Counted from the stretch's first letter, positions 3,001-53,857 are shown. The stretch is 64,000 nt of DNA from an uncultured archaeon (GCA_964607835.1 CAZSLL010000002.1:20014-84013), one strand, 5' to 3'. The notes: generated from the sequence alone by a model not told the origin. Made by a program: numbers and translations.

Positions 3001-6000
3001 GCAGGAACCTGGAACGGAAGCAACATGAGCATATACGTGGACGGCTCCCTTGAGGCCTACACTGATTTCTCAGGGGCCCTGTTCGCCAGCGACGAGAAGC
3101 TCCAGATAGGCAAGCGCAATGCAGAGTACTTCGAGGGCAGGATTGACGAGGTCAGGGTGTGGTCCAGAGCCCTCAGCCAGGGCGAGCTCATGATGAGCAG
3201 GGGCACTGAAGGAATTGACACCCTGGGGAACTTCACCCTTCTGGATGACGGCATGTACAGGTACTATGCCGTATCCACTGACCTTTTGGGCCAGAGGAAC
3301 CAGACCGAGACAAGGTACCTGAACATAAACTCAACGCCTGACCTCATAACCCCGTTCTGGACCAGCAACAGCACCACCGCCATCAACGGCACCACCCACT
3401 ACGCAGAGCTCGTCAACTTTACAGTGACCCTGAGGGACAACTACGTGGGAGGCCAGTTCATATTCAGCTATGACAACGGTAGCGGCACGTTCTACAACAA
3501 CAGCGCCTCATACTGGCTTCACCCCACATACGACGTGGTGTCCCAGAAGAACATAACCGGGACCAAGGGGGATGTGGTGAGATGGCTCTGGTACTTCAAC
3601 GACTCCTACGGCAACATGAACTCCACAGACACCTGGGAGTTCACTGTCGGCAACGCCCCTCCCGAGGCGCCTACCCTTCTCACACCAACCAGCTACGGCG
3701 AGCAGTCAGAGGGTGTGGAGTTCAACTTCACATACTCCGCAGTGGACGTGGACGAAGAGCCCCTGACATACCACTTCTACTTCGACGGCATCCTCAACCG
3801 CTCCACTACAGATACCTATGTCAACATGACGCTTCCAAAAGGCAAGTACAACTGGTCTGTCATGTCGGATGACGGAATTGAGAATTCCAGCATGAGCGAT
3901 GTGTGGTACTTCTACGTCCTCGAGTGGACAGACTGGTGGAACAAGACCTGGGCCTACAGGAACGTGTTCAACATTACCAACACCGCCGGCAACCTGACCG
4001 AGTTCCAGGTCTACCTGGACGAGGTTGACACCACCACCCCGATATCAGAGGGCAAGATGCAGTCAGACTGCAGCGACATAAGGTTCGCCAACGACTCCGG
4101 GCACGAGATTGAGTTCTTCGTTGAGCCAAGGTGGTGCAACGACGACGAGAGCAGGATATGGGTTCAGATCCCGTTCCTGGAGAACGATACCACAACCCAG
4201 CTGTTCATGTACTACGGCCCGCTCTACAACGTGACCTCTCACAGCAACGAGCAGGCCACATTCAACTATACAGAGCGCACCCCTGTACTCATCCCCCTGG
4301 GAACCAACAACGCCATTGGCGGGCTCAACAGCAGCGTCCAGGCCCTGGACAACAACACCAATGCTTCCATAGGCTCCTGGGAGGAGGGGGACATGGACGA
4401 GTACGAGTTCTTCGGCCTCAGGGGCCAGACCGACTACCAGAACACACAGACCCTCAACTCCACTGGCGCTGTGTTCGCAGACCACGTGGGAAATGGTACC
4501 ACCAGCGACAACGGCGCTGCCCCGGGCGATGCCTGGGTTCCCGTGGGATGGGCAGCTTATGAGTACATGTACCCCTTCAACAGGAACTACAACTATTTCT
4601 TCATGTACTCCCCCTACTCTGACGCCTCTGTGGACGTTTACTACAGTTCGGGCACCTCCTGGCCGGGCTCTGCGGACGAGACCATAACCATTCAAAAGGG
4701 AGGCATCAACATTACCACGGTGAACACTGACGGCAATGACGAATCTGCCCTGCGGGTAATATCCGATGCGCCCATCTCGGTCTTCGTCCAGAGCGGCCCC
4801 AGCAACACAGGCATGGGTCGATACTCCCAGGACAACTTCCCTGCCCACACATATGACACAGACCTCTTCGGAATCCCGTCAAGAGCATTCAACATCGTGC
4901 CACTCGAGGACAGCACCCTCATCAGACTGTACTGGGGCGACGGGGTTTCACAGCTCACCCTGTACTTGGATGGCGGGGAGGTGTACGAGCCACCCAGTGA
5001 GTTCATGCTTCCTGACATTGACAACACTGACAGCGAGGGCAGAATTCAGTCAGCCCATCTCTCCGCAAGCGACCCCATCATGGCCGTGCAGACCGCAGAT
5101 GCTGACGGAACCGACGCCACCACCTTCCTTCCGGAGTACGAGCTCAGCTCCAGGTACGTCCTGCCCCAGGACGGCCAGTACCTCACCATTGCAACCGTGG
5201 ACTCGCACACGAACTGCACGCTCTGCACGCCCGCAGGCTCTTGCGAGGACCAGAGCTCCTCCCCTGACATAGACTACCCCTATCCTGACCACCTGTATTT
5301 CGGGAGCGGTACAGACGGTGCCAACATTCCCGAGGGCTCAGTCCTGGACTGTGACGCCGCGGTTTTCGCATACTACGAGAACCAGGGCGACCAGGGCACC
5401 GCCCATGGTGACGAGCACAACATATTCTCCTACAAAGGGATGAGGAAGTACGCGGACCCCTACCCCACCATAGAGGACACAGGGGAGCAGGACATAATCC
5501 CCGAGATTAATGACACCTCTGTCACGCCATCAGCTGACGGCTGGGGCGCGAGGCACAATTTCAGCGTTTACGCATACGACTGGGACAACCAGACCCTCGT
5601 GGTCAGACTCTACTACTCCGGTTCCTCAGGCGGGCCCTGGGAGTACCTGGACTACACGGTGGCGGAGTACGCGGCCACCAGGCACGAGGTCACTGTGGAG
5701 GACGTGAGGTTCGGGTGCTCTGACATAGGGACCCGGTACTTCTACTTCAACACCACTGACAGCGCGGGCCACTCCGCAGAGGCCTACGGCTCCTCCTTCA
5801 CTCTGCAGGAGGATGACGTCACCCTGGAGTACGTGGCAGGCGACGGCCATACCCTCAACAGGAGCGACTCCCGGACAGGCTACCAGACCGATGTCATAAC
5901 CAGGGTCTATGACGACGACAACGAGACCTATGCCTTCACCGACGATATAGTAGCCAAGCTCTGGGTCACAGAGGACGGCTCTGAGTACGACGACATCGAC

Positions 6001-9000
6001 ATAACCACCAACGACACGGGCCACCTCCAGATTCAGTCCACAGGGGGCAAGTTCAACCCTGACTGCAACTACAGCGTGGGTGCGCAGAACTGGTACATGG
6101 AGGTCCAGGAAAGCGACCCCTGCTACAAGTCAGCCATCTCAGGCATCTATGACATATACATAACAGGAGACCTGCAGAACACCATAACATCCCAGAGCGA
6201 GGGCTCTAACGAGTACAACTCAGGTGACACCATAACCTTCGAGGGAACCGTGGTTGACGACTGCGGCAGCACTGTGAGCTCTTCCGACGTGTACTTCACT
6301 GTGACCCAGGGCTTGTCCACCATAGAGGTGTGCCACGCATCCTGGACCGGTTCCCTCTTCAGATGTGTGTGGTCGGACACCTCCGGCCTGGACGAGGGCT
6401 GGTACAACGTGACCATGAACTCCACGGCCCCGTACTACAACCCAGGGGAGGACATGAGGAATTTCTCTGTGACCAGCTACCCCATACTCGAGGATGCCCA
6501 GGTCAACGACACCTCGGTCACCTGGGACAATGCCCTGAACTTCACGGTCAACGTGAGCGACTCTGCAGGGGACTCAGTGAACGTGAGCCTCTACCTCAAG
6601 AAGACCCCCTTCGACGAGTGGAGTTTCGTGGGCAGGACCAACTGCACGAGCTGCTCTGACACGGTGGTGGGTATAGAGGCCTTCTTTGACAGGGAAAACA
6701 TATCAAGCTCCTGGCAGTTCAAATTCAACGCGACCGACAGCACGGGCTACGGCAACCAGGGTGAGGACCCTGGCGGAGGGTTCGAGGTCACCAAGAAGGC
6801 CCTTGAGTGGCACTACATAGAGGGCAACTTCAGCGTGGCCAACCGGACGGGCGCGCAGACCGCCCTGCTCAGCCTGAGGGCGTACGACGCCTCAAAGGGC
6901 GCCTACCTGGGGGCTGACGAGAACGTGACATATTACGTCACCCGCTCGGGCTACCAGTTCGGCCAGTACGACAGCGGGTACAACGTCACCACCGACGCCA
7001 GCGGGTATGCAAACTACTCCTTCAGCCCCGGATGCTCGCCTGAGTACGTGGTTGGGCTCCAGGCATGGAAGGCCGAGCTCATATACCAGCAGGACTATTA
7101 CACAGGCTATGTCTCAGGAGAGTACAACGTCTCGGTGTGGACAGAAATCAACCTAACCACGGTCTATCCCCAGCAGGGCGAAAACCCCACCTACGACTGG
7201 GGAAACAGTATATTCCTCCAGGGCAGGATAACCGATGACTGCGACAACTCCATAGACAACGCTGACGTCACCTTCAACATGACCACAGGAAGCCAGGAGT
7301 ACAGCTTCTCGCCCACGGGCATAGGGGGCGGGCTGTACCAGGGCTCCTGGGACTCCACAGGCGTGGTTGAGGGCCAGTACAACGTGACCTTCTGGGCCAA
7401 CAAGAGCTACTACTACGCTAACCAGACAGTGAACTCCTTCCCTGACTCCTTCTACATCACGACCACGCCCATACTCAAGCAGGCCAACGCAACCCCGAGG
7501 AGCGACGGCTGGGGGGCCGGCTTCAACTTCACCGTCAACACCACGGACGAGCAGTACGACAACGTCACGGTCATACTGGAGACCAAGAGGTACGGGTTTG
7601 ACTGGAGCCAGACAGGTGACTCCCAGAACTGCACCTCCTGCACCAACCACACCTTCACCTGGAACGAGTCCTACACCTGCGGCCTCATGGCGGGCAACCC
7701 CACCAGGTACTTCAGGTTCACGGGCACGGACGACGAAACCAACACCCACATCACCTCTGTGACAGGCGGGGACTACGTGGACGACGACAACACCTATGTT
7801 CTTGAGAAGGACGACGTGTCCATCTCCATCTATCGGGGGGACGGTCTGCTCGTCAACCGTTCCGGGGGCTCGAACAAGGTCACTGTCTTCCTGACCGACA
7901 CTGACAGGGGGGAGTACCTGCACGACTACGAGGCCACTGTTCGAATGAACCTCACCACCAACACCTCCAACCCGGGCTCAGAGAACAGGACAGTCAACAC
8001 CACAACAACTAACGGAACAGGCCACGCCCACATGACATTCTCACTCGGCGGGGACTGCGGCTATGAGGTGGGCAACCAGACGTGGCTTGCCTACATAGAC
8101 ACAGGGGACACCTGCTATATGAACACCACATCACCCGCCTGGAACGTGACCGTGATGGGAGACCTCAACTCATCCATTGACACGGCATCATACATCCGCC
8201 ACCAGGAGGACCTCGTGAACCTCACCATCAACGTAACAGACGAGTGCGGACGATCCCTGTCCAACGTCAACGTGACCTCGATAGTGGTCAAGAACCAGTC
8301 AACCACATTCAGCTGCAACGACACCATAGACTTCGGGAACGGAACCTTCCAGTGCTCCTGGAACACCACCCAGGATACCCCGCCTGCCAGGTATGACGTC
8401 CAGCTCACTATAACCACGAACGAGTCCTACAACAACGCCACCAGGTACCACACCGACGTGGTGTGGCTCCAGAGCTATGTCAATAACCCACCCGGGTTCA
8501 CAGAGCCATCCTACGCCCCTGAGGGATGGGGCGCTGCCATGAACTTCACAGTGCTCGTCCAGGACGTGGACTACAACAACGTCTCTGTGAGGTTCTACAC
8601 CTCCCCTGACGGGGACCATCCCTGGACCCTCAGGGAGACCAAGCTATGCGAGGAGTGTTTCTACGAGTACGTGAACTTCTCCCTCTGGCACACCTGCCCT
8701 GATGTGGGCCAGACCTACTACTTCAAGTTCAACGGCACAGACCAGAACTACACAGGGGACTGGGACCTCACGGGCTCCTCCTCCCCCCAGAGCTACACCG
8801 TGCAGAGGGACAACGTCACCTTCACACTTCTCAATGGCACGGGCTCCCTGGTCAACAGGCAGGGAAGCCAGATGAACTATCCGCCCATAATCGTGAGGAT
8901 GTACGACAGCGACAACCAGACCTGGGTGGGCTCAGGCGTGAACGGCACCCTCTACGTTACCTCAAACAGGAGCGCGGGCTCTGGATACCAGCAGGCCCTG

Positions 9001-12000
9001 CTCAACACCACCAACTCCAGCGGCGGGCTGCATTTCAGCTTTGACCCTGGATGCTCATATGCCCTGGGCGAGCAGGACTGGCTGGCGGGCTCTGTGAACA
9101 ATACATGCTACAGCACCCAGAACATGAGCCTGGCCTCCAACCTGACCATTATGGGCGAGATGCTCCAGCACGTGCTCGAGGCCAACTGCTCGGGCAACAC
9201 CACGTGCTACGCAGACGAGAACGTGACCATGCAGGTCAACGTAACAGACGAGTGCGGGGTTGCTGTTCCGGACGCCTCGGTGAGCATGAACCTAACTCAT
9301 GACAGCTACACAATCAACTGCACCCCTCTGGTGAACCAGGGCTCAGGGCTCTACAACTGCACCTGGAACGTCAGCGACTCCCCTGGCGGGAGTTATGACA
9401 TAGAGCTCTTCACCAACCACAGCAGCCACAACGAGAACCTCACCACCCACGAGGACATGTTCTTCAGGCAGGTCCCTCCCTCCCTTCACACAGAGGGCGC
9501 TGCCCCGGGCTCTGCCTTCTGGGCGCGCTCTGCTGACGGAAGCCCGAGGTTCACCTTCTGGGTGAATGTCACTGACGATGACGACGAGGTCACGGTGGAG
9601 CTCTGGCACTACGACAACGAGTCAGGGGGCGACTGGGAGCTGGCCAACTCCACTGTGCTCAATGATGCAGTTGGCTACAATGTCTCACTTTCCCTGGCCT
9701 ACAGCAGCATACCAGGCGACATAGGCTACTGGAACTGGAAGATAAACGTTTCAGATGAGATGGGCGCGGGGGACGGGACCGGGGAGCACGAGATAGAGGT
9801 CCTCAGGAGGAACCTCAACATCTCGCTCTATTACGGAAACGCCTCGTCTGTGCACAGGATAAGCAACACGACCGTACTCTCTGTCATGGTAAAGGACGAC
9901 TACGACAGCTTCTCGGTTACCCAGGGCACTGGCAGGTTCTGGGTGACCACAGACGGAACAAACTACGGTCCTGAGCAGGTTCCCAGCTACACCGGAGGCA
10001 TGATGAACCGCACCTTCAACCCCGACTGCGTTTACCAGGCCGGGGTCCAGAAATGGAAGGCAGGTGTAAGGGGGAGCAGCCTCTACAATGACAGGAACTC
10101 CTCCTCCTGGCAGGTGGACGTGTTCTCAGACCTCTACCCTGAAGTGGCCTATCCATACGGACAGTCATACCCAAAAGGGAATGCAGTCCCGCTCAGCGGG
10201 AGCCTCTCTGACGAGTGCGGCCAGGTGGCCGGGGCCACCACAGAGTTCGAGGCCTGGATAGACGGGGCCCAGCTCACCCCCGAGTGCACGCCCTCAGACG
10301 AGGGCGGAGGCATGTACAACTGCAGCCAGAGCACTGCCACAGCCACCTCGGGCATAAGCGCCTGGCACAACGTCACCATGAACGCATCCAAGGTCTACTA
10401 CATAGCCAACTACACCCTTGAGGAGGACGTCTTCAGGGTTGCCCAGGAGCCCGACCTCAAGAGTCCTGGCGTGAGCCCGCCCACTGACGGCTGGGGCGTG
10501 AACTATACATTCTCTGTCACCGTCAATGACCAGGACCTTGACGACATCGTCAACGCCAGCTTCTGGACAGCCCGGGCGAGTTCAGGGCCCTTTGAGCTCA
10601 GGGGATACCAGAACTGGACCAGCGATCAGGCAGACCACGACTTCTACTATTACCAGGAGTTCACGTGCTCTGACTACACGGACGGGGTCTCCAATTCCGT
10701 TTACTACAAGTTCAACGGCACTGACACCATCAACTTCTCTGACCAGACAGGGGTCCAGACGCTTTCCCTGCAGAAGGATGACGTGGGCTTCCAGAACGAT
10801 GTCGGCGATTCCATCACTATTGACAGGGAGGGTTCTGTGACAGGGCTCCTTGGCATCCAGGTCTATGACGACGACAGGCCCAATGACCCGGTGCTGGGTC
10901 AGGGAATCAACGTTTCATTCTGGTCCACCAGGGACGGCATCAACTACTATGTCCCCATGTCAAACACAACCAACGGCACGGGATTCGCCTTCTACAGCTT
11001 TGGCCCTGACTGCAACTACTCGGCAGGCTCCCAGACATGGCAGGCCGGCACGAAAGAGAACACCTGCTATGGGGACCAGAACCAGACCAGCCTGGGGCAG
11101 TCACAGACCCTCCTCATCCTGGGCCAGCTCAAGAACTACCTGCAGCTTCCATCATCAAGCGACTTCAACGTAACCGACCAGATTGACATAAGGCTGAACA
11201 TATCCACTGACTGCCCTGTGCAGGACGGCCTGCTTTCAGGCGCCACGGTGACCATAAACCTCACCAACGATGACACAGGAAACTACTCGGAGTGCTCCTC
11301 AGTGGATGACGAGGGGGACGGCTGGTACAACTGCACATGGGACTCAACCGGATTCGAGGAGGGCTGGTGGTCAGTGAACGTCACGGCCAGCCTGGCCAAC
11401 TACAGATACAACACCACCACGTGGTCGGGCAGGTTCTACCTGGACAACCTCAACATGACAGCTGGTAACCAGACCGCACACCCAGCAGAGGGCGGCTGGG
11501 GGACAAACTACACCTACAACATTACAATCAGCGATGCCGAGAGCGACTGGGTGACGTGCTACCTCTGGACCAACACTACAGGCTCAGGATGGGTCCTCAG
11601 GGGCTCTGACGTGGTCCAGGGCTCGGGCAACTGCTCCATCGTGGTCTCCGGGTTCTCATGGACAGACGTGGGCCAGACCAATTACAGGTTCGCAATAAAC
11701 GACACCTTCAACTCCTTCGAGACCGACAACTTCACGGGCCCGCTACTGCATTATGACTACGTCACCATAGGGCACTATATAGGCAACCAGAGCAACGTCA
11801 ACAGAAGCGGCATCCAGAGCACCCTCCTCTCGGTGTTCGTTAACGACACTGACTACGGCTCCCCTCGCTCTGGCATCAACACCACGTTCTGGGTCTCTTA
11901 CACTAACGGCTCCTCTGACTACGACTCAGGCGGGACCGAGACCACAAATGCCTCAGGCCATGCAGGATACCAGTTCGGGCCGGGCTGCAGCTACACAGTG

Positions 12001-15000
12001 GGAAGGCACCAGTGGAAGGCCGGGGTCACAGACACGAGATACAACAACACCAACACATCAGAGTACCTGGAGCTTAACATCACAGGAGACCTCCTGCCTG
12101 TCATAACAGAACCCCTTGGCGGGACAGCCGGTCTGGTCCTGCAGGGCCAGAACGTGAGCCTCAGGGCGAGGCTGGACTCTGACTGCGGCTCAGAGGTCAT
12201 GAACGATACCAGGGTATCTTTCATATTCGACAACATGACATCAGAGTTCTACTGCCTTCCGCCAGATGACCAGGGAGACGGCTACTACAACTGCACATAC
12301 AACACCTCCTCCCTGGCTGCCGGGTGGTACAACATGACCTTCAACGCCTCCAGGGAATTCTACAACCCCAACTCCACCACAGAGAGCGGTGCATTCTTCG
12401 TGGAGACCGCCCCGGAGCTGTCCAGCCCGGGTGTGGACAAGCTGGTGGGGGGCTGGGGCGAGACCTTCACCTTCTCTGTTGACGTCACTGACCGCGACAT
12501 GGACACAGTGACCGTGAGGGCCTACTACAGGGTGTTCGAGGACGGAACGGGCTGGGGGGACTGGACCCAGATACTGCCGTCCAACCAGACCTCAGGGACA
12601 GGCAGGACCGTGACCTTCACAAAGAACAACTTCCTCACAAGCGAGATTGGCAACCTCACCTTCAAGTTCAACGCCACTGACGACAACACCAACTCCCCGG
12701 CAGGAACAGGAACAGGCACACAGTACTCTGACGAGGTGGCCTATTCAGGCAACCTGACGCTGGAGAAGGACGACACCATACTTGTATATTATGAGGGCAA
12801 CGAGACCAGCGTCAACAGGGTGGGGAGCGACAGCGTGACCTTCAAGCTCGGGGCCCTGGACGTGGACAAGGGATATGAGTACATCCCATACCTGCTCCAG
12901 GGCCAGGTCTGGGTGACCAGCGCTTTCGGGGTTCCTGGCTCGTACATAAAGGACGGTGACCAGGGATTCGTGAGGAACCTCACCTACAGCTTCGACCCCG
13001 CCTGCCAGTACGGCGTGGGCAAGAAGGACTGGAAGGCCAACTTCACCGGCGACTACCACAAGTCAGCGGAGTCTGATGAGTTTAACGTGACCATTAACTC
13101 CGAGTACACTGCCTCCATAGAGTACCCACACGGCCAGAGCTTTGACAGGGAGACGGATGACATACCCTTGAGCATGAGCCTTGACGACGCCGCCGGGTGC
13201 GGCCTGGTGACAGGGGCCACCACAGAGTTCAGCGTGAACGGAAAGGGCAGGGTCTGCGACGGAACTGACATGACAGACGGGCTCTACAACTGCACGGTCA
13301 ACCAGGCCCAGGTGTCCTCCTGGGACTACGGCTGGTACAATGTAACCGGCAACGCCACCAGGGAATACTACCCAGAGGACGTGAACGACACATATGAGGA
13401 CGCCTTTTACCTGGCATCCAGCCCTCTGCTCCAGAATGAGCAGCTCTCATACACCTCTTTCTGGGGGGACCAGGGCAACTTCAGCGTAACCGTATACGAT
13501 GCAGACAACGGCTCAGTTACCGTGTACCTCTACAAGAAGCTGGATGTGGGTGGCGAGTGGGTGCTCCTGGGTTCTGACTCCTGCGTCGGCTGTGACAACA
13601 GCCCGGTCATAACAATAAGCCACGACTTTGACTGCGGTGACATAGGCACCAACTACTACAAGTTCAACGCCACTGACAACTGGGGATACAGCGACGCGAC
13701 AGGTGAGAACGACAACCCATTCACCCTGCTCAAGGACAACAGCAACGTTTTCTACTACACTGACAGCGAAATGACAGTGGACAGGGAAACAGGGTCAGTC
13801 GAGCTGGCTGCTGAGTTCACTGACACAACCCTGAGCGAGCCCGTCCAGCCCGGGACCAACGGAACCTTCTACATCACATACGACGGGGTGACCATGATAG
13901 AGCTCAACAGGACACAGACCAATGCCTCGGGCCATGTCTCCTACATCTTCAACCCCAACTGCACCTATGAATCCCTGCCCCAGGAGTGGATGGTCAGGCT
14001 TGAGGACGAGGCATGCTACGTTGAGGGCCAGACCCCCGCACCCAACTACACCGTGCACTCCATGGGCAACCTCAAGATAAACATGGACACCCCCTACGAG
14101 GGCGAGGAGTTCCAGACCACCAGCCTAATAGACATAAGGTTCAACGTGACCTCTGACTGCCCGCTCGGGGGGAGGGTGAACGACACTTACACAACCATAC
14201 AACTGGTCTCGCCCAGCGGGGACTGGGAGACCTGCTCCAGGAACAACGAGTCAGGCCCGAACAACGGCCACTTCAACTGCACATGGGACTCCACTGACAA
14301 GGAGACCGGGGACTGGGGAATCCAGGTCAACGCCTCCTACGCAAACTACAACGAGAACAGGACCCTTTTCGCTGGGTGGATAAACCTCACCAACGCAGCC
14401 CCTGCCTACAGCAACGAGCAGGTCGACCCGGGCGAGTCAGGATGGGGCGACACCTTCAACTACAGCGTTGACGTGGCTGACGCAGACGCAGACAACGTAA
14501 ACTGCACGCTCTTCGTCTCAACCAACGGGGGAAGCAGCTGGGAGGAGAAGGGTTACATGCTCGTGACAGGTGGCAACAGCAGGTGCTACGTGGAGGTAAG
14601 CGACTTCTCCTGCGGGGAGATGGGAACAGACAACCAGTACTACTTCAGGCTCTCTGACGCCTACATAGAGGTTGACACCCCTGCTTACGACGGGCCCAAC
14701 CTCACCGTGGACTCTGTCAGTGTTCAGCATGTTTTCGGGGATCAGGAGGATGTTAACAGGTCAACAGAGACAATTGGCCTGAGCGTGCTCTTCACAGACA
14801 CCACCAAGGGCCAGGCCCTGGAGCCTGTCACCGCATATCTCAATGTAACCAGGAACGGCCAGGACTACACGTTCCTTGACTCCAACGCCACGGCATCAGG
14901 CTACGCCAACTTCAGCTTCTCCCCTGGCTGCGCGTTCAACGCCACAAAGCATCACTGGAACATGCTCATAAACGATACATGCTTCGAGAACACGACAAGC

Positions 15001-18000: not shown

Positions 18001-21000
18001 GAGTTCGTCAACGCCACCAACGCCTCGGGCTTCGGCAACTACTACCTCAACCCCGGCTGCAGCTTCACCCCGGGCAACTGGGAGTGGGTTGCCGGGGTGA
18101 CTGACGGGTACTATGAGAACAGGAACACGAGCACCCTGAACATCACGGTCCTCGGAACAATAACAAACACAATACTCGAGCCACTTGGCACAGAGCACCT
18201 GCGCGGCACCAACATAACCATCAGGTTCAGGCTCAACGACAGCTGCGGAAGGAACATAACAGGGGCGCAGGACATGAACATAACCCTCACCCACGAGGAC
18301 ACTGACCAGGGCTTTTCCTGCGACAACATACAGGAGGAGGGCAGCGGCCTCTACAACTGCTCCTTCAACACCTCGGCCAACCCCTCTGAGCTGCCTGCCC
18401 AGGAATACAGCATCAGCATATCCTCGTCCAAGCCCTACTACAACAACGACACCAGGCAGGTTGCCTTCGTGGGCGACACCTCGGGCTTCTTCATTGGCAC
18501 GCGGCCTGTGCTGGAGGGCCCCAACGTCTCGGCCTCGGGCGGGGACTGGACCGTGGGCTCGTGGTCAGAGGACTGGAACTTCACGGTAAACATAACCGAC
18601 GAGGACGGCGACACGGTCTTCCTGACCCTGTGGAGGAGGCAGTGGCAGGACGGGACTGGCTGGGAGGAATGGGAGGAGGTGGACACAAAGCAGTACAGCA
18701 ACACAGACCAGACCCTTGGCTACATAAAGGACAGCGCCTACACCTCGCCGGCCAGCCTGGGCAACTGGTCCTTCAAGTTCAACGCCACTGACAGCGGCAA
18801 CCTGCCACTTTTCGGCGGGCCTGAGTTCAACTACACTGCTGACGGGTTCAACTACACAATAGAGAGGGACGACCTGGAGATAACCTACTATGCAGGCTCG
18901 GGCATGGACCTGGACAGGAACGGCTCGGCATCGCTCATGCTCTCGGTCCTGGTGTACGACTCTGACCAGAACAGGTACCTGACAGGCGGTGAGGCTGACG
19001 GCTACCTCTGGATAACCAGGGACGGCTCCAGCTACGAGCAGGAGAACAGCATCTCCACCCAGAATAACGGGTTTGTCAACTATTCATTCAACCCCGGATG
19101 CCCGTATGACGTAGGCGAGCAGCTCTGGAAGGTGGGCATAGAGGGAAACAATGACTTCAAGGATGTTAACTCCAGCGTGTTCAACGTGACCCTGCACACC
19201 TTCATAGACGGCAACATCACCCACCCACACGGCCAGACATTCTACCAGGGGGCCCAGATACCCATGTGGTTTGACCTTTACGAGGGGGACTGCGCTGGCA
19301 ACCCCCTCACGAGCCCGGCCACCATGCAGCTGGTCATCAACTCAACAGACGGCTCTGCCACGTACTACGTGCCCATAGGCCAGATAAACCAGTGGGGCAA
19401 CGGGACCTACAACCACACCTGGGACTCAGCAAGCAAGGCCACCAAGTTCTTCAACATCACAGCAGAGCTCACCAAGCCCTATTATTATGACGCCGCTGTT
19501 ACCAGGGAGAGCGCGTTCGCACTCACCACTGCCCCTGAGCTCCAGTCACCGAACTACTACTCCACGAGCGACCACGCCTCCAACGACGGGGGATGGGGCG
19601 AGCTCCATGCATTCCAGGCCAACTGCAGGGACAGGGACGATAACAACGTCACCCTGAGGCTCTACTGGAGGAAGACACCTGACCACGGCTGGGAGTACCT
19701 TGACCAGCAGACCTGCAGGGGCGTGAACTACCAGACCTACACATTCGAGGACTACTACTTTGACTGCAATGACATAACCCCGTCCGGGTGGAACTCCCAG
19801 TTCAAGCTCAACGGCACAGACTCCTACAACTTCAGCGACGAGACCAACCCCGAGAACTTCACCATAACCATGGACGATGTCCAGGTGAACTACATCACAG
19901 GCTACAACCTTGACATCAACAGGGAGGGCTCAGCGAGCGGGCTCTTCCTCATAATGATAAACGACTCTGACAAGGACTACGAGGGAGTGGGCCCGGGCAT
20001 CAACGCGACCACGTGGGTCAGCACTGACGGCTCCAGGTTCCTGACCAACTACACCAACACGACCGCAGAAGACTCCATGATGTACATGTACTTCAACCCT
20101 GACTGCAACCACAGCACAGGTGAGCAGGAATGGGTCTCAGGTACCCTGGATGACACGTGCTACAAGGACGTGAATATGACCGGGGGCTCCAGGGATTTCC
20201 AGGTCTACGGCCAGCTCAGGAACAACCTCGGTATGCCCGGCCACCTAGAGACCTTCAACGTCACAGAGAACGTGAGCATAAGGTTCAACGCTACGTCTGA
20301 CTGCTCTGCAGAGGGAAGGGTAAGCAACGCCTACACCACTGTCCAGCTCCAGAATCCCTACGGAGAGTACCAGCCCTGCGCGCCCGTCATCAACGAGACC
20401 GCGCCGAGCCAGGGATGGTACAACTGCACCTGGGACTCCACTGACCAGAGGGAAGGCTTCTGGTCAATCCAGCTGAACTCCTCCAGGGCCTACTTCAGCA
20501 GCAACCAGACTCTCTACCAGGACTGGTTCAGGCTCGAGAACCTCAACGCCACGTGGACAGGGCTCCAGGTGTCACCTGCAACAGACGGGTGGACAAGGCT
20601 CTACAACTTCTCTGTGAACATAACCGACCCTGACTCTGACCTTATCAACTGCACCCTTGAAATCAACAAGTACGACGGCAGCGGATGGGTTGCACACGAC
20701 AACATGACCCTTTACAACTCCACAGGGATAAGGGGCGAGGTGTGCTGGGTAACTGTCTGGAACTTCACCGGCGATGACATCGGACAGAACAGCTACAGGT
20801 TCTACATCCAGAACGGCGAGCCCGCCAACTACTTCAGGACAGACAACTACACAGGCCCCACCCTCCAGGTTGCCAACACCTCCCTGTCCTTCGCCACCCA
20901 GAACAGCACAGAGGTCAACATCACAGGGGATTACGAGTACCTGGCCATCCTCCTCAACGACACTGACAACGTGACAGCAGGCCCGTGGAACCCGCCCGGG

Positions 21001-24000
21001 GTCAACGTGACCTTCTGGGTCTCGCACAACCAGTCCTCTGTTGACCAGGGCAACCTCACCCAGACCAACGGGACAGGCCACGCCAACGTATGGTTCGACC
21101 CCGGCTGCTCATATTCCGTGGGCCCACAGCAGTGGTGGGCCAACGCCACTGATTCCCACTACGAGATGAACAGGACGCAAGGAAACCTCACTGTCATAGT
21201 CCATGACGACCTCAACGTCAACATCCAGAAGCCCCTTGGCATGGAGTACCTCAACGGCACCAACGTGACAGTGAGGTTTAACTTGACAGACAGTTGCGGT
21301 AACCTCATAGCAGGCGCCAACATCGCCATAAACATGACCCACGAGGACTCTCTCCAGGAGTTCTCATGCGGCCCTGTCATAAGGGAGGAGGACCAGGGAG
21401 GGGCAGAAGGATGGTACAACTGCACCTTCAACACGTCATCCATACCATCCCAGGAGTACACGCTTACCATAACAGCCAACAAGACCTGGTACAATTTCGA
21501 GAGGCACACTGACCCATATCTGGACGGTTCAACGGGGTTCTTCATAGAGACCCTTCCGAGGTTGTCCAGCCCCATGATAAACACATCAATAGACGGTTAT
21601 GAGTCAGGGGGATGGGGCGAGCACTTCAATTTCTCTGTTGAGGTCACTGACGATGACGGTGACTCTGTCACGGTCTCCCTCTACAAGAGGATCTGGACAG
21701 GCGCCGGGTGGTCGGCCTGGTCAGAGGTGACCAGCACACTGTTCTGCTCACAGTGCGAGGATACCCTGGTCTACTTCGCAGAGAACCCTGAGACCTACAA
21801 TCCCTCCACTGACCTTGGAACCTGGCAGTTCAACTTCACTGCATACGATGACGGCTCTGCACCGAGGATTGGCGGGACCACCTACACCACTCAGGTCATG
21901 GGATACAACTACACGGTGGAGAGGGATGACATCACCATAAACGAGTTCATCGGAGACGGGCTATCTGTCTGGAGAAACGGCACGGATTCAGTCACACTGA
22001 CCAGCAAGGTCAATGACACTGACCTGGGCTCGCTGCTGGAGTACAACGACATAGACAGTGAGGGTATAATCTGGATAACCAAGGACCATGCCGATTTCCT
22101 GCTGGTGGACAGCTCCCTCTCCACTGACGAGAACGGTAACATGAGCTACAACTTCAACCCTGATGGGAATTCCGAGAGCTGCGAGTACGACGTGGGTCCG
22201 CAGTACTGGAAGATGGGAACCAGCGGTCACCAGGACTACAAGGACGTCAACTCGAGCAGCAGTACGGTTGTCCTGTGGTCCTTCCTCAACGGCACAATAG
22301 AGACCCCGCAGGGAGAGCCCACCAGGAGGGGCATAGACCCTGTGAACGTAACCTTCAATGTGTTTGACGAGTGTGACAACGGCGTTAGCCCGCTCAACAA
22401 CACCATAATAAGGTTTGCCCACACGAACGAAATCTACAACATAACCTCAGGCATAACCGATTACGGAAACGGGACGTACTTCTATTCATGGGACACAACA
22501 GGTCGCCACCTTGGCATGTACAACCTCACAGTAGAGCTATACAAGGACTATTACGTTGGCCTTAATATGACCCTTGAGGACGCCTTCATGCTCGGTTCAT
22601 CTCCTGAGCTAAGCTACCCGCCCACAAACTGGTACTACTCAGACGATGACGGTGGCTGGGGCGAGGACTGGACATTCAGGGTGAGGTACAGGGACGGCGA
22701 GGTCGGGGACAACCTGAACATATCCCTCTGGAAGAGGCGCACGCCAGATGATCCCTGGGAGCATGTCATGATGAAGAACTACACAGTGGAATCAACCACA
22801 TGGAGCTCCTACCTCTACTACGAGGTGGATGACTTCACCTGCGGTAACGTGACGCCCCCTGGCTGGGAGTCGCAGTACAAGTTCAATGTCACTGACCAGT
22901 GGGGCTTCGACTACGAACATGACACAGAGAACTTAACCATATACAGGGACAACGTGAGCTTCCTCTACAGGGCAGGCGATGACGCCGGGATTGACAGGGA
23001 GGGCTCTGATATTGGGAGGCTGGGCATACTGGTGAGGGACTATGACAGGTCCAACATGCAGGTCGGGGAGAACGTGTCCGGAAGGTTCTGGATAACCACG
23101 GACGGCTCGAGCTACGAGACCGGTTTCGTCAACCAGACCAACTCCTCGGGAGAGATTAGCCTCTACTTTGACCCCAACTGCACCTACAGGACAGGGGTCC
23201 AGGACTGGGTGGCAGGGACATACGGGGACGAGTGCTACTTTGATGAAAACTTCTCTGAGTTCAGCCTCACGATATATGGACAACTCAAGAACGGCATACT
23301 ACTACCTCCATACCAGGAGGTCTACAATTTGACAGAACCTGTTCCCATCAGGGTGAACATGACCTCTGATTGCCCTGGTCAGGAGGCCTCGATTAACGCA
23401 ACCTCACTAACGGTCCAGCTCCAGAGCCCTTACGGTGCCTGGCAAAGCTGCTCGCCTGTCGCCAACGAGACCCCACCCAGCGAGGGGTACTACAACTGTA
23501 CGTGGGACTCCACTGACCAGAGGGAAGGCTTCTGGTCCATACAGCTGAACTCCTCCAGGGCCTACTTCAGCAGCAACCAGACTCTCTACCAGGACTGGTT
23601 CAGGCTCGAGAACCTCAACGCCACGTGGACAGGGCTCCAGGTGTCACCTGCAACAGACGGGTGGACAAGGCTCTACAACTTCTCTGTGAACATAACCGAC
23701 CCTGACTCTGACCTTATCAACTGCACCCTTGAAATCAACAAGTACGACGGCAGCGGATGGGTTGCACACGACAACATGACCCTTTACAACTCCACAGGGA
23801 TAAGGGGCGAGGTGTGCTGGGTAACTGTCTGGAACTTCACCGGCGATGACATCGGACAGAACAGCTACAGGTTCTACATCCAGAACGGCGAGCCCGCCAA
23901 CTACTTCAGGACAGACAACTACACAGGCCCCACCCTCCAGGTTGCCAACACCTCCCTGTCCTTCGCCACCCAGAACAGCACAGAGGTCAACATCACAGGG

Positions 24001-27000
24001 GATTACGAGTACCTGGCCATCCTCCTCAACGACACTGACAACGTGACAGCAGGCCCGTGGAACCCGCCCGGGGTCAACGTGACCTTCTGGGTCTCGCACA
24101 ACCAGTCCTCTGTTGACCAGGGCAACCTCACCCAGACCAACGGGACAGGCCACGCCAACGTATGGTTCGACCCCGGCTGCTCATATTCCGTGGGCCCACA
24201 GCAGTGGTGGGCCAACGCCACTGATTCCCACTACGAGATGAACAGGACGCAAGGAAACCTCACTGTCATAATCATGGGAAGCCAGAACAACACCATAACA
24301 AGCCCCTCTGGCGGGGAGTATCAGAGGGGCACCAACGTGACAGTGAGGTTCAGTCTCGAGGATGCTGACGGGTGCGGGAGGAACATACCAGACGCCTCTG
24401 TGAACATATCCATGGTGAGCGAGAAGACAGGGCAGGAGTTCTACTGCGCTCATGTCAGCAACGAAGGCCAGGGCTGGTACAACTGCACGTTCAACACATC
24501 CCTCAATCCGGGTGTCATGCCGGCAAGATGGTACAACCTCTCCATCTCCACAGAGAGGCAGTTCTACAACAACCACACAGAGAGGTATGACCACGCCTTC
24601 TGGATTGAGACCAGCCCTGTTCTCAGTCTGGACAGCTACAGTGTGGACCCTCAGGAATCGGGCTGGGGTTCTGAGTTCAATTTCACTGTCAATGTCACTG
24701 ACGAGGACGGCGACACGGTAACTGTCAGGGCATATGAGCGGGCCTACGGGGACTCCACCTGGAACCTGCTAATAGCATCAGGTGGTGGCGACTACTCCCA
24801 GTGCAGCGGTTGCGACAATCATACAATGACCTGGACCAAGTCAGACTATGCCTGCTCGAGCCTCGGGGGCGAGGACAACATTACCAGGGAGTTCTACTTC
24901 AACGCCACTGACAACAGCGATGTGGACGAGTTCCCTGAGGAGGACATGGAGGCCACTGACCCCATGAATTTCACCCTTCTCAAGGGGCCGGCCAGCGTCG
25001 ACCTTGTCCAGGGCAACGCCACCTGGATATACAGGCCAGGTGGCTCTGAAAGGCTCATGATAAGGATTTACGACATTGACAAGGGCGGATACGCAACCGC
25101 CCCCAACCAGAGGGTGTACTTCAACGTCACCACTGACGGCCAGGGCGGCGGCTGGACGCCGAGCTCGCAAAAGTTCTCCAACCTCACGGGCTATGCCTAT
25201 TATGACTTCAACCCCGGGTGCTCGCCCAAGTACGAGACCGGAACCCAGGACTGGAAGGCCTCCCTGGTGGGGGCCCAGTGCTACCAGGACAACACCTCTG
25301 ACCTCTTCGAGGTATACATCTGGACAGACCCGCTGAACATAACCATGGACGTGCCTGACGGTGAGCATTACAGGCGTGCCGTGGACAACATAACGGTCAG
25401 GGCCCACGTGAATGACGAGTGCTCGGGCTCTGCGGGCAATGTGGAGGATGCGACACTCCAGTTCGGGGCCCAGAACGAGCTTGCATGTGTGTACACATGC
25501 ACCCAGCCCAACACCCTTGAGGAGGGCTCGGGTTGGTACCGCTGCAACTTCACCTCGAGCCAGACCTCGGGCTGGGGCGACTCGTGCCTTGGCGACTACA
25601 ACACCACCGCTGTTGCGACAAAGGCCTACTACAACACCTCGGGCACGTTCACTGATCAGGACTCCTTCTGGCTGAGCGAGGTGCCCCAGCTGTCCTGGGC
25701 GCCCACTTGGCACACGGCAGACACCTCCAATGCATGGGGCTCTGGCCACCACTTCTACTACAGGATAAAGGACGGGGAGTCATCCATAGGGGACTCTGTG
25801 GACATATACTTCTGGAAGAGCTACGGCTCGCCAGGCAACTGGACCCTGCTGGGCAACACCACGATCTCGCCGCCCACCCAGGAGAACCACCAGTTCGACA
25901 TCACCTTCAACTGCAGCGACGTGGGAACCAACTACTACAAGATAAACGCCACAGACATGTGGAACGACACCAGCACCACGGCCACGAACAGCTTCGACAC
26001 CCTGAGGAACAGGCTTTCGGTCAACTCCAGGGTGTTCTCAATCGATTCATCTGTGGACAGGGAGGGAAGCGGTTCAGCCCACCTTGCCATGTGGTTCTTT
26101 GACCTCGACGCAGGGGAGACCATAACAGAGGAGGGCATCAACGGCACCATATGGGTAACGGTCAACGGAACCGACACCTCCACCTGGGACAGCGGCATCC
26201 AGAACCAGACCAACTCAACCGGCGACCTTGGGGCATACTTCGACCCCGGCTGCGCGCCGCTCTACATGCCCGGCCTTCACTACTACAAGGGCGGGATTCC
26301 GCTCGGGCAGGACGCATGCTACTACACCCCGGCGAACAGCACCAACCAGAACATGAGCGTGAAGGCCCAGCTCAAGGTCTTCCTAGAGAGGCCTGAGGAG
26401 GGCAACACCAGCATTGTGGGCGACCTCATCCCGTTCAGGTACAACCTGACCTCTGAGTGCGGGGACCTGGTCAACGACTCCACGACAACGATAGAAATGG
26501 GAGACTACGAGGGGGTCTGGGAGTCCTACGTGCCCAGCAACGAGGGGGACGGCTGGTACAACCATACCCTTGACACGGGCTTCCACAAGGGGGGCTGGTG
26601 GGACATCAGGATAAACGCCTCAAGGTCATGGTACTACCGGAACACCACGACCTGGTCTGACTGGTTCTACCTCCAGAACACACCGCCCACCATAGACAAC
26701 GTCTCCGTGAGCCCTGAGGAGGGTCCCTGGGGCGGGGTCTACGAGTACAGCGTCAGGATATGGGACCTTCAGCAGGACAACGTGACGTGCGAGCTCTGGG
26801 TCTCAACAGACGGCGGTGCAAATTACTACATGAAGAACTCGACTGAGATAATATGGGGAAGGGACTGGTGCAACCTCACGGTTGGGGACGCCCTTGACGG
26901 CACGGAGTTCAACTGCTCTGACATGGGAACAGACAACAGATTCTACTTCAGGATAGACGACAAGACAAACATCAACTACACTGACAACATAACTGGCCCC

Positions 27001-30000
27001 AACCTCACGGCTGACACGGCCATGATAACCTACATCCAGGGCAACGGCTCTGTGATAGACAGAGACGACACCTCCCCGGACAGCGAGGCCCTCTACAGGG
27101 TCTACGCCAACGACACGGTCAGGGTGGGCCCTGTGCTCGAGGGGACTGACATAACATTCTGGACCACCTACAACATGTCCCTCTTCGACGACGGCAACTC
27201 GAACCAGACCAACTCGAGCGGATTTTCCAGCTACATGTTCAACCCCACGTGCTCTGAGCCAAAATACGAGGTAGGCCCCCAGGAATGGAAGGCAGGGGTA
27301 ACGGATTCGTGCTACGTCCCTGTGAACACGAGCGACAACTACTCCCTGGAGATATGGGGGAGCATATACGGGACCATAGACAGGCCGAACCCGGGCGCCA
27401 ACACCTTCCAGAGGGAGGCCTCCAACATAACAGTGAGGGGCTACGTGGAGGACGACTGTGTTGACACCAAGACCGGGGTCAACGTGTCATTCAACTTCAC
27501 CCACCTCGACACAGGGAAGTCATACGACTGCCTGTACTACTACACAGAGGCCATCATATACTACAGCTGCGAGCGCAACTCAACAGGAATGAGAGCAAGG
27601 TGGTACAACAACACCATGACCTCCACCATGGAGTACCACTACCCGAACACCACGACAACAGAGTCCAACTTCGAGGTCTTCACCAAGCCCGTCATGCTCA
27701 ACCCCACTGCCCTGACAGACCCGGGCGGGTGGGGCGAGAGGTTCTACTTTACCGTGAACCTGACTGATGAGGACTATGACGAGGTCACGGTCAACCTCTA
27801 CGCAAGGAAATACGGGGAGACCGAGTGGGGCCTTCCAAAGAACGACACCTCCACAGACACAGCCCTCGGGGAGATACTCAGCCTCTCCTTCGAGGACGCC
27901 TACTGCCCGAACATAGGGACCTGGGAGTTCTACTTTGAGTCAGAGGACAACCGCACCCCAATGGGCATGACCAATGACACCGGGGCGGTCAACTTCACCA
28001 TAGAGAAGGACGATGTCTCAGTCGTATACGAGCAGGGCGACGGGTTCTACGTCTGGAGGAACGGCTCTCACAGCAGGAACCTCATAATGAGGGTATGGGA
28101 CAACGACACCAACGACTGGGCGGGCTCTGGCGTGAACTCCACATTCTGGGTTACCAGGAACTCCTCGTCAGGGACCTGGGACCCGGGCAAGTACGAGGTC
28201 AGCAACGCCTCCAGTCACCTTGTCTACGGCTTCACGAGCGAGATACCTGAGTCAGAGTGCAGCTACGAGCTCGGGCCGCACTACTGGAAGGCAGGGACAG
28301 GAGGAATCAACGATGACATGTGCTACAAGCCCGTGAACTCATCCTCATACAACCTCTATCTCAACTCCACGATGTTCCTGACCATACACGAGCCCTACGG
28401 CCAGGGAATACTCTGGGGCACACCCCTCAGCGTGGTGGGCTTCATCGAGGACGACTGCAAGCCGGTTGAGAACGTATCGGTGAGCTGGGAGTTCATCAAG
28501 GGCCAGAACTCATGGACAAGGACCCAGGACCAGGCCAACCAGAGCCAGGGCTGGTACAACTACACCTGGACCGAGACCCAGAGGAACGTGGGCTATTACA
28601 ACATAAGCATGGAGGCTGACAAGGAGTTCTACGGTCCCAACACAACCCTCAAAGAGGACGCCTTCTTCATAGCCCTTGCCCCGGACATACTCTCAACAGG
28701 CATTGACAAGCAGCTCGGGGGCTGGGGCGAGACCTATGACATATGGGTTAGGGTCACTGACGCAGACAACAACTACGTCAACATTACCCTCTGGAAGAGG
28801 CTCCTCAACGAGACAAGCATGGAATGGGGCGACTGGGAGCTCGTGGACCAGAAGTGGCAGGACCAGCTCGGCGCGACATACCTGCACTACTACGAGTACT
28901 TCACGTGCGCTGACATGGGATGGAACCAGTTCAGGTTCAGGGCAGTGGACGAGTTCAACTTCAGTGATGACACCAACAAGACCGTTATAAGCGACTCCCT
29001 CGAGCTCAAGAACAGCTCCCACGCTTTCGGAGCAATTCACGACGCCTCGGGCCAGGCAGACACGGGCTTCGGCCACACAGAGCAGGCCGCGCACTCCGGA
29101 TACTACAAAGAGTTCAACATCACTGTCCACAACCTGAACGGGACTGCAATGTACTTCGACCTCGAGGTGGGAGGGGTCCAGGTGGCCCAGAACCAGAGTA
29201 TGGATGACGGCCAGAACGCCACCATAGACGCCATCGCATCAGTAGGGGCGTTCACACTTCCCGGGGGCACGGATGTCAACCTCACTGTGAGGGACGGCCA
29301 GGGCGGTCCCGCGGGGGCCAATTACACCGCCTACCTCAACACCACCCAGGCCTATCAGGAGTACTCATACAGCGACTACTACTACCTCCCCTACGACACC
29401 CAGTCCTTCAACATCACGGTCCAGAACCACAACGCAAGCACAATGTACTTCGACCTGAGGGTGAACGGGCAGTGGGTGGCCAGGAACCTGAGCGCCGGGT
29501 CAGGGCAGAACGCGAGCTATGATGCCCGCAGGCAGGTAGAGATGGACCTCTCCACTGGCACCCAGAGCATACTCATCAACGTCACCAACAGCTCGGGCTC
29601 CTCGGCTGTCTCGGACTTCTCGGTCTACCTCGACTACGTCACAGGCGTGCACGAGTTCTACCTGCAGGAGGACAACGTCTCGGTCTACCTCTGCGACGGT
29701 TCTGTCTGCTCTCCTGCCAGCAACACGACCGTGAGGAGGGAGTCCTCTCAGGACGCCTACCTGAACATAAGGGTGAGGGACACTGACTTCGGGAGCTACC
29801 CGAGCGGTGTAGACACCAGGTTCTGGGTGACAGAGGACTTCTACAACTACACAGAGTACCTTGACTGCACCACCGCATCAGGCGGGTACTGCGACGAGGA
29901 CTATGACCCTGACTGCGATACGGTCGCAGGGGTCCAGAAATGGAAGGTCCAGACCACAGACTCATGCTACCAGCCCCTCAACACCTCGAGCAAGAACCTG

Positions 30001-53521: not shown

Positions 53522-53857
53522 ATGGCTGAACTCAGGAACGTGGACATACAGGGAAGCGACATCATCGTCAACATGCGAATCACCAGGGACGAGTACAATC
53601 TCCTGGGTCAGAGGACAGGTGACATTGCGCTCATTCCCGCTGGCGACAGGGAGCTCGACCACACGCTGACCTCGGGCAAGCTCGGCAACAGCAACCGGAT
53701 AATGCTGCCCAAGAAGCTCCTTAACATGGAGGGCATAGTGCATCTGGAGAAAAAGCTTGCCTCCAGGTTTTTCAGGGTGAACGGAAGCGTGTACCTGCTC
53801 ATAAGGCTCAGGGAATCCGATGTGGGCATTCCCATGTTCATGGAGGAAGGCAAATGA
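53522..53857 (+). CDS. Small hypothetical protein (111 aa), possibly AbrB/SpoVT-like swapped-hairpin DNA-binding fold
   Basis: 'NRIMLPKKLLNMEGI' resembles the AbrB/SpoVT 'grvtIPkeiReklgi.eGd' motif. A 4-nt ATGA overlap with the downstream KaiC-like gene indicates an operon. The fold assignment is weak. Confidence 0.55.
   Translation: MAELRNVDIQGSDIIVNMRITRDEYNLLGQRTGDIALIPAGDRELDHTLTSGKLGNSNRIMLPKKLLNMEGIVHLEKKLASRFFRVNGSVYLLIRLRESDVGIPMFMEEGK

Follow-up and report, generated by a model that had tools for sequence, protein, structure and literature searches.

Giant surface proteins of DPANN archaea, known as SPEARE, are the closest described counterparts of the gene analyzed here. Those of the Nanohaloarchaeota (NAR1_1133, 5,998 aa; AOV94740.1, 8,553 aa; SVXNc_0300, 9,409 aa) are mostly extracytoplasmic and combine laminin-G and Ig-like domains (~75 of the latter in SVXNc_0300) with a C-terminal transmembrane segment, a cytoplasmic ATPase, for which a VirB4/TraG-like identity was later put forward, and, at the very end, a coiled coil; comparable intracellular parts are also noted for Aenigmarchaeota and Micrarchaeota (PMC6642349, PMC10266531). 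We analyzed a stretch of 64,000 nucleotides (nt) from an uncultured archaeon (GCA_964607835.1, CAZSLL010000002.1:20014-84013), hereafter the window, and in particular the giant gene that opens it and the long repeat array that this gene encodes. By described architecture, the predicted protein resembles SPEARE in that most of its length is extracellular and a single transmembrane segment near the C-terminus is followed by a cytoplasmic C-terminal region; it likewise has laminin-G and many Ig-like domains, a P-loop ATPase and a terminal coiled coil. It differs in being larger (at least 12,574 aa), in having DUF2341 in its head, and in that its stalk is built from a family of ~335-aa three-domain modules that Pfam does not cover and that form a conserved A-B-C super-repeat. 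The largest such protein named for cultivated archaea has 9,409 aa (PMC6642349, PMC10266531) and is thus shorter than the window protein, and in a limited literature search we found no description of a module/super-repeat hierarchy in SPEARE proteins. We consider it fairly probable that the array forms the stalk of a giant, C-terminally membrane-anchored, glycosylated and disulfide-stabilized surface protein of the SPEARE architectural type of DPANN archaea.

A module profile, iterated from one 340-aa segment of the giant protein, identified 23 full modules of 312-363 aa each (aa 1810-9519; nt 5461-28590), named M01 to M23, and a partial 24th module ending at nt 29055. The same profile detects three degenerate module remnants reaching nt 31656, and its matches past the last full module lie at aa 9520-9662, 9823-10059, 10146-10349 and 10418-10541. 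The module consensus includes the motifs GWG..NF.V, F.P.C.Y..G.Q.W.AG and G.YNCTW. A first-pass annotation of this DNA had proposed a ~1-kb recurring unit marked by these three motifs, and the profile recovers it. Exact motif searches find few module copies, because the motifs are degenerate. Tandem Repeats Finder (period ≤500) reported nothing relevant, since the module repeats are too long and too diverged, and no Pfam family was recognized in a super-repeat. Self-BLAST of the whole protein returned the self match only, and 400-aa chunks were used instead.

Several comparisons place the stronger periodicity at three modules. Residue autocorrelation peaks at lags of 1024, 1016 and 2040 aa and is weaker near 334 aa. 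The 400-aa chunks give diagonals at each multiple of ~340 aa, of which those at ~1020, 2040, 3060 and 4080 aa score far higher. The self-comparison suggested in the first-pass annotation was therefore much stronger at multiples of ~1020 aa than at ~340 or ~680 aa, and not limited to a 1-kb periodicity. In all-versus-all comparison of modules, identity at lags 3, 6, 9 and 12 averages 29-35%, as against 23.5-24.4% at the remaining lags. Within M06-M23, pairs in the same phase have a mean identity of 34.3% (minimum 25.7%) and other pairs 23.7% (maximum 29.4%; Mann-Whitney p = 5e-21); the same-phase mean is still 33.1% without the M16/M19 pair, which is described below. The three module types, A, B and C, form clades in a neighbor-joining tree (bootstrap 98% for A, 80% for B and 76.5% for C), differ in their cysteine patterns and insertions, and are well separated by type-specific hidden Markov models (HMMs), whose scores are 407-508 bits for modules of the matching type versus 60-174 bits for the rest.

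The strict alternation with period three that had been claimed for the entire array holds from M06 to the partial M24 (nt 10360-29055), which run in the order C-A-B-C, and fails for the five leading modules; typed by HMMs built without those five modules, M01-M05 read c, B, B, C, b. Six strict super-repeats were counted from M06 to the partial M24 in place of the approximately eight first suggested. Neither is their length fixed at 1024 codons: successive values are 975, 992, 982, 1033, 1016, 1024 and 1022 aa, and the spacing of 3072 nt is exact solely for the M16/M19 pair. Together with the structure predictions given below, these data show that the stalk is organized in a three-level hierarchy, in which predicted ~110-aa β-sandwich domains make up ~335-aa three-domain modules and the modules make up ~1000-aa A/B/C super-repeats.

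The module family was then followed outside the window. Among 1.84 billion cluster representatives, the module profile matches 901 proteins at E ≤ 1e-3 and 345 proteins at E ≤ 1e-30, and the matched proteins reach ~7,000 aa and 18 modules. Named members of the module family belong to Ca. Micrarchaeia and Aenigmatarchaeota, and the names given to homologues are Ca. Micrarchaeia, Aenigmatarchaeota, Woesearchaeota and Nanoarchaeota. A single-protein scan of genome contigs gave one match, a 3.2-kb Guaymas fragment (QMMN01000148). The closest relatives of the giant protein are in metagenome-assembled genomes of Aenigmatarchaeota and Micrarchaeia.

When the HMMs derived from the window were applied to the homologues, the module order A→B→C→A was found in 193 of 201 (96%) confidently typed adjacent pairs from 155 proteins. 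The long homologues, like the window protein, begin with poorly typed leading modules that are followed by a strict ABC zone. Every window module except M16 and M19 is nearest to a module in another organism's protein, and these matches are collinear: P0018 corresponds to M03-M08, P0006 to M08-M12, P0058 to M22-M23, and P0001 to M16-M18 at 65-76% identity, whereas P0015 follows M10-M15 and then has an extra block resembling M13/M11/M12/M13. A distant micrarchaeal protein matches M04-M10 in order, then has several B-C-A copies resembling M17/M18/M13, and has an end resembling M22/M23. For most of the modules, positional orthologues exist in other organisms, so that the triplet is ancient; these module comparisons show the A-B-C order to be older than the split between the lineages in which the family occurs. 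By the same comparisons the array as a whole is old, with conserved and individually recognizable edge modules and a central zone, M11-M19, in which B-C-A blocks are duplicated or homogenized lineage by lineage. We rejected a recent amplification of the whole array, as nearly every module is closer to another organism's module than to its own paralogues.

The central growth zone consists of three B-C-A blocks (M11-13, M14-16 and M17-19), which are mutually the most similar blocks of the array. Identity at lag 3 within this zone is 35-48%, rising to 88% for M16 and M19. The latter two type-A modules share a tract of 729 nt (243 codons), which is the sole exact repeat of at least 40 nt within the window; its two copies lie exactly 3072 bp apart, as noted in the first-pass annotation. 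The left flank of the tract (nt 20338-20469) is 80% identical between the copies, and 16 of its 27 mismatches fall on third codon positions, whereas the right boundary is abrupt. The flank mismatches involve all bases and have no adenine bias. This pattern fits a recent gene conversion or unequal exchange between modules of the same type, laid over an older event. A diversity-generating retroelement was considered as the origin of the tract and rejected, as the mismatches are not adenine-specific and no reverse transcriptase was present among the Pfam-scanned flanking open reading frames (ORFs).

Growth of the array by duplication of three-module blocks, another proposal of the initial reading, agrees with both module identity and the module tree, in which the B-C-A blocks are most alike. 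It agrees as well with the homologues, among which P0015, P0013 and P0016 hold extra copies of the central B-C-A block and several proteins carry identical peptide tracts of their own at super-repeat spacing (975 aa in P0013, 970 aa in P0156, 1036 and 2068 aa in P0015, and 1043 aa in P0159). A simple mechanism may be suggested. Neighboring modules are ~24% identical, so that homologous recombination could pair modules of the same type only, and unequal crossing-over and gene conversion would then act in steps of three modules. The array would change in threes because only modules of the same type are similar enough to recombine, and the identical tract of M16 and M19 would represent the most recent such exchange.

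The structure of module M16 was predicted by AlphaFold2 using the alignment of 23 modules (mean predicted local distance difference test score, pLDDT, 84.5; predicted template modeling score, pTM, 0.68). The model is all-β and contains three β-sandwich subdomains; the first 26 residues of the module are modeled with low confidence and probably round off the third domain of the module before it. The model of a super-repeat (pLDDT 85.4, pTM 0.35) is also all-β, and its strands correspond to three copies of the three-sandwich module, or about nine domains; the model is confident for single domains but not for their long-range arrangement. Foldseek searches against PDB returned tandem macroglobulin (MG), fibronectin type III (FnIII) and Ig-like arrays with good E-values but low TM-scores of 0.12-0.31. 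The matches included complement, alpha-2-macroglobulin, RbmA, the adhesin extenders 4p99 and 6xi3, thick-filament titin and a mastigoneme, as well as 5irb. The resemblance of the modeled module to these proteins is at the level of fold only. Membership in the alpha-2-macroglobulin/complement family was rejected for this reason, Pfam giving no A2M or TED match and MG2 scoring 20 bits, below the cutoff of 32.8. Subdomains D1 and D2 align to each other by hhalign (probability 85%, E = 7e-6), and this apparent distant homology is a hint that duplication also took place at a third, older level.

The number of cysteines is even in all 23 window modules. C218 and C281 are present in 23/23 modules, C305 and C323 co-occur in the same 17, and C106 and C235 in the same 13. 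Of the six type-A modules, five have the pair C66/C97; in the remaining one, M22, the partner is shifted by one alignment position. Of 275 modules in the homologues, 254 contain an even number of cysteines, and co-variation of the same pairs is seen there too (phi 0.56-0.89). The array further contains 433 N-x-S/T sequons versus 123 expected from composition, a 3.5-fold excess, and the 374-residue tail after the membrane segment contains four. The even, co-occurring cysteines and the excess of sequons together indicate that the predicted array is extracellular, N-glycosylated and disulfide-bonded. The rod of roughly 70 Ig-like subdomains with conserved cysteine pairs described in the first-pass annotation is upheld as a prediction, both by the three sandwiches per module over 23.5 modules and by the cysteine counts.

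The remaining parts of the giant protein surround this array (Table 1). No in-frame stop occurs from nt 1 up to nt 37756-37758, and the count of 12,574 codons begins at the first start listed. Thr, Ser, Gly, Asn and Asp are abundant in the protein, which has 184 cysteines. Its N-terminal region aligns with the homologue P0028 starting at P0028 residue 1207; hence the window lacks ~1,200 aa or more, the signal peptide among them, and the full-length protein probably has ~13,800 aa. Homologues with complete N-termini start with a basic and hydrophobic signal-like segment, which is followed by a Thr/Ser/Pro-rich linker. The distal head matches DUF2341 (E = 3.2e-23; two stretches, the best at nt 631-858) and Laminin_G_3 (E = 5.5e-47; two stretches, the best at nt 2740-3186). 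Just past the module array there is a short repeat (nt 29113-29198 and 29407-29492) with 73% identity and a spacing of 294 nt (98 aa), which indicates another small tandem domain type. The membrane-proximal region is retained in P0033, P0031, P0016, P0105 and P0025. A Gly/Ala-rich linker, GGESGGGGASGGAAGGAAGGAAGEE, encoded by a 12-nt tandem repeat at nt 35809-35883, lies just outside the membrane-proximal domains, and the homologues have analogous G/A/T-rich linkers at the matching place.

The predicted membrane segment occupies aa 12173-12204 and is directly followed by KSKKKKKS. The density of N-x-S/T sequons is 5.5 per 100 aa before this segment versus 1.1 after it. In the ATPase domain, DUF87 (the HerA central domain) scores 35.5 bits versus the Pfam cutoff of 23.2, the Walker A motif GSTGAGKS is encoded at nt 36814-36837, and the C-terminus is coiled-coil-like from near nt 37549. 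The domain weakly resembles HerA, CedD, TraB and TraD, and its assignment is at the superfamily level. In all six homologues that match the terminal segment, the membrane-proximal region, membrane segment and ATPase form the extreme C-terminus, and the ATPase is the best conserved part of the giant-protein family. The nearest named relatives of the window ATPase are from Aenigmarchaeota. The same ATPase is also encoded as a stand-alone protein of ~550-727 aa in Aenigmarchaeota, Woesearchaeota and Heimdallarchaeaceae (45-55% identity). In the giant protein it probably serves as an oligomeric motor or organizer. The first-pass annotation of the array had noted neither the membrane anchor nor this ATPase.

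Table 1. Coordinates of the giant gene, its parts and the downstream genes in the 64,000-nt window (nt positions counted from its first letter)
Feature	Position	Strand	Remarks
Giant ORF	1..37758	+	At least 12,574 aa; open at left edge of window; stop codon 37756-37758
Distal head region, DUF2341 + laminin-G/concanavalin-like	631..3186	+	Pfam; within N-terminal 1,800 residues
Leading modules M01-M05	5461..10359	+	Module family members outside A-B-C order; typed c,B,B,C,b
Strict super-repeat zone M06-M23	10360..28590	+	C A B x6; type HMMs, identity, neighbor-joining tree
Starts of M06-M14	10360, 11362, 12322, 13330, 14308, 15280, 16369, 17407, 18400		
Starts of M15-M23	19444, 20455, 21451, 22513, 23527, 24526, 25591, 26593, 27598		
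Central growth zone, B-C-A blocks M11-13, M14-16, M17-19	15280..24525	+	Mutually most similar blocks; tree
Exact 729-nt tract, copy 1	20470..21198	+	Inside type-A module M16
Exact 729-nt tract, copy 2	23542..24270	+	Within M19 (type A), 3072 nt downstream of copy 1
Partial module M24, then degenerate module remnants	28591..31656	+	Profile HMM; M24 at 28591-29055
Membrane-proximal ectodomain, other β-sandwich domains	31657..36549	+	NPCBM_assoc-like at 33937-34122
Single predicted transmembrane segment LISALRAIFWNWVTYVVMFFMVPAAYGGTYAY	36550..36678	+	Read from sequence; KSKKKKKS on cytoplasmic side
HerA/FtsK/VirB4-superfamily P-loop ATPase, predicted cytoplasmic	36736..37755	+	DUF87 above Pfam threshold
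649-aa coiled-coil protein	37954-39903	+	Immediately downstream of giant gene; weak SMC/Rad50-like coiled-coil matches
1,961-aa predicted surface protein	39893-45778	+	NPCBM_assoc + Invasin_D3-like; ORF overlaps upstream gene by 11 nt
KaiC/RecA-like single-domain ATPases (ArlH/FlaH-related)	45775-46602 and 53854-54522	- and +	Beside surface-protein genes
1,367-aa predicted surface protein	46639-50742	-	Laminin-G
Sulfatase	52040-53449	+	Downstream of giant gene
Polyprenyl synthetase + UbiA prenyltransferase pair	55535-57240	-	Downstream of giant gene
Three consecutive sensor genes	58263-63933	-	dCache, HAMP, PAS, HisKA/HATPase; one complete histidine kinase

Downstream of the giant gene, the window encodes two more predicted surface proteins and a set of smaller genes. 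The 649-aa coiled-coil protein has a homologue downstream of a micrarchaeal giant gene (L002 18791-19630; 26% identity over 280 aa, E = 2e-30) and may represent a conserved partner gene. The 1,961- and 1,367-aa proteins share β-sandwich stretches of 25-32% identity with the membrane-proximal part of the giant family. With its KaiC-like ATPases and UbiA prenyltransferase, the neighborhood looks archaeal; no tRNA genes were found within the window.

Most homologues of the giant protein are partial and lie on contigs of 1-9 kb, and the gene family apparently breaks assemblies on a regular basis. Homologous fragments (L001; P0001-P0012) on contigs of 2-9 kb are labeled Deltaproteobacteria, Hydrothermota, Peribacteraceae, Bathyarchaeota and others; these labels of unrelated phyla presumably reflect mis-binning. 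One case is a 1.30-Mb contig, on which P0016 (5,201 aa, with the ATPase; L002 1-15713) starts at nt 108 and opens with ABC..., and the partial P0013 (6,938 aa) ends within the array as ...ABC. Most likely, the ends of the contig divide a single gene of at least 12,139 aa into P0013 and P0016, and the contig is perhaps a circular genome.

Other giant proteins offer partial parallels to the window array. Halomucin of Haloquadratum walsbyi is a giant archaeal extracellular glycoprotein of ~9,000 aa (PMC6642349). It is in this respect, and by description only, that it can be set beside the window protein. To our knowledge, no ATPase or membrane anchor of this type has been described for halomucin. 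The giant adhesins of bacteria (MpIBP region II, LapA/LapF-like, SiiE, Bap) share with the window protein long β-sandwich arrays that project a distal binding region. Their extender arrays usually consist of near-identical, single-domain Ca2+-binding repeats, and the proteins are exported by type I secretion and anchored N-terminally in the outer membrane (PMC4083281). In contrast, the window repeats are 24-48% identical and hierarchical, with cysteine pairs and sequons, and what anchors them is a transmembrane helix near the C-terminus, to which an ATPase is fused. An RTX/Bap-type extender array was rejected, as neighboring modules are ~24% and modules of the same type 26-48% identical, the sole identical stretch being the 243-codon tract.

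The arrangement of modules can also be compared with that in muscle proteins. Titin's A-band has super-repeats of 7 and 11 domains and nebulin has 22 seven-repeat groups, and both arrangements match the periods of filaments (PMC3859903). The window array likewise is an ordered higher-order repeat of non-identical modules, its central super-repeats are the most similar, and it was apparently duplicated by whole blocks. Duplication of a central block is also known for nebulin. However, titin and nebulin are eukaryotic and intracellular and follow filament periods of ~43 nm and 38.5 nm, whereas the window protein is predicted to be extracellular, glycosylated and disulfide-bonded. On this comparison, the two muscle proteins are analogues of the window array and not its relatives.

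The predicted features are best read as those of a stiff glycosylated stalk displaying a lectin-like head and anchored by a transmembrane helix fused to a P-loop ATPase. An Ig domain is ~4 nm long. Assuming ~70 domains of this length, the array would be a stiffened spacer of ~0.2-0.3 micrometers if extended, and it would keep the lectin-like laminin-G/DUF2341 head at a distance from the cell, where the head could touch a host cell or a surface. The alternation of unlike neighboring domains would limit misfolding between domains, a protective effect that has been discussed for tandem Ig domains (PMC4862688).

Several points weigh against this simple picture. Two of the putative cysteine pairs, C106/C235 and C218/C281, would join different subdomains, which suggests a compact, stiff module rather than beads on a string and thus a shorter stalk. 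The geometry between modules is undefined in the super-repeat model (pTM 0.35), so that the shape and length of the rod and the Cys-Cys contacts are predicted only. The long-term positional conservation of modules could reflect a specific role of each module beyond spacing. Finally, histidine kinases with Cache, HAMP and PAS domains, such as those encoded at the end of the window, are unusual for the reduced genomes of DPANN archaea.

Among the alternatives, a ruler or periodic co-assembly similar to titin or nebulin survives best, although we regard it as unlikely. Here, a partner structure or, alternatively, a homo-oligomeric multi-chain bundle templated by the oligomeric ATPase would have a period equal to the nine-domain super-repeat, and the number of super-repeats would set the cell-cell distance. 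The first-pass annotation had likewise linked such ordered super-repeats with fibre or stalk proteins of defined length, a view for which the evidence is mixed. Ordered super-repeats of distinct types are indeed the hallmark of the titin A-band and of nebulin (PMC3859903). The order of types is kept in 96% of neighboring pairs across the family, and modules are retained as positional orthologues at only ~50% identity, which implies a long-term constraint instead of free expansion and contraction. The ATPase is also compatible with a multi-chain assembly, HerA/FtsK-type ATPases being typically hexameric. However, no periodic partner is known, the number of central blocks differs between lineages, the length of the super-repeat varies within 975-1033 aa, and the super-repeat model lacks a defined long-range geometry (pTM 0.35). 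A more elaborate version, to which we assign a very low likelihood, is a multi-chain fibre or tube, in which chains gathered at their cytoplasmic ends by the ATPase would stand in register along the ~nine-domain period and bridge the DPANN cell and its host, at a length that depends on how many central B-C-A blocks there are. If true, such an in-register fibre would be a prokaryotic extracellular counterpart of the titin and nebulin rulers, coupled to a motor.

Two further functions seem decidedly doubtful. A secretion or uptake conduit ("straw"), in which the VirB4/HerA-like ATPase powers the transfer of DNA or effectors and the array lines or supports a channel to the host, has been proposed for nanohaloarchaeal giants with the same overall architecture (PMC10266531). 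The ATPase, which is weakly similar to CedD, TraB, TraD and HerA, is the best conserved part of the family, which speaks for a conduit; yet each chain has one transmembrane helix, no other type-IV-secretion components were found among the neighboring ORFs scanned, the published idea is itself a proposal, and the repeat architecture requires no channel. The second is a multivalent binding array, in which each module or module type binds a ligand such as a glycan and A, B and C recognize three ligands. The positional conservation of modules and the type-specific cysteine patterns and insertions fit individual roles of modules, and one homologue is annotated as transthyretin-like by the Joint Genome Institute (JGI), but Pfam recognizes no binding-domain family in the super-repeat, and the recognizable lectin-like domains are located in the N-terminal head instead.

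That the 729-nt tract or the number of super-repeats results from mis-assembly of the metagenome is highly improbable: assemblies of this family do often break in the array, as at the ends of the 1.30-Mb contig that split P0016 and P0013, and the central-block number is most at risk, but the A-B-C order rests on 18 modules of 24-48% identity, which an assembler cannot confuse, and recurs in 155 independent proteins, the graded left flank with its excess of third-position changes points to older conversion and drift and not to a chimeric join, and the reading frame is intact over 37.7 kb. Mis-assembly of the tract would, moreover, leave the rest of the architecture unaffected.

The giant surface proteins are among the genes of DPANN archaea the most conspicuous and the least understood, and a role in attachment to host cells is attributed to them. 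The present analysis delimits a family of modules, for which the tested super-repeat gave no Pfam match, and locates the site of array growth in its central zone. The repeat architecture explains why giant genes break assemblies and are placed in wrong bins, and the type HMMs provide a practical means to reassemble and compare these genes. The stalk of the window protein is thus a conserved three-level hierarchy, whose modules have positional orthologues across organisms, and not a random pile of Ig-like domains; with the type HMMs, the relation of stalk length to the dimensions of the host envelope or of the gap between cells becomes testable.

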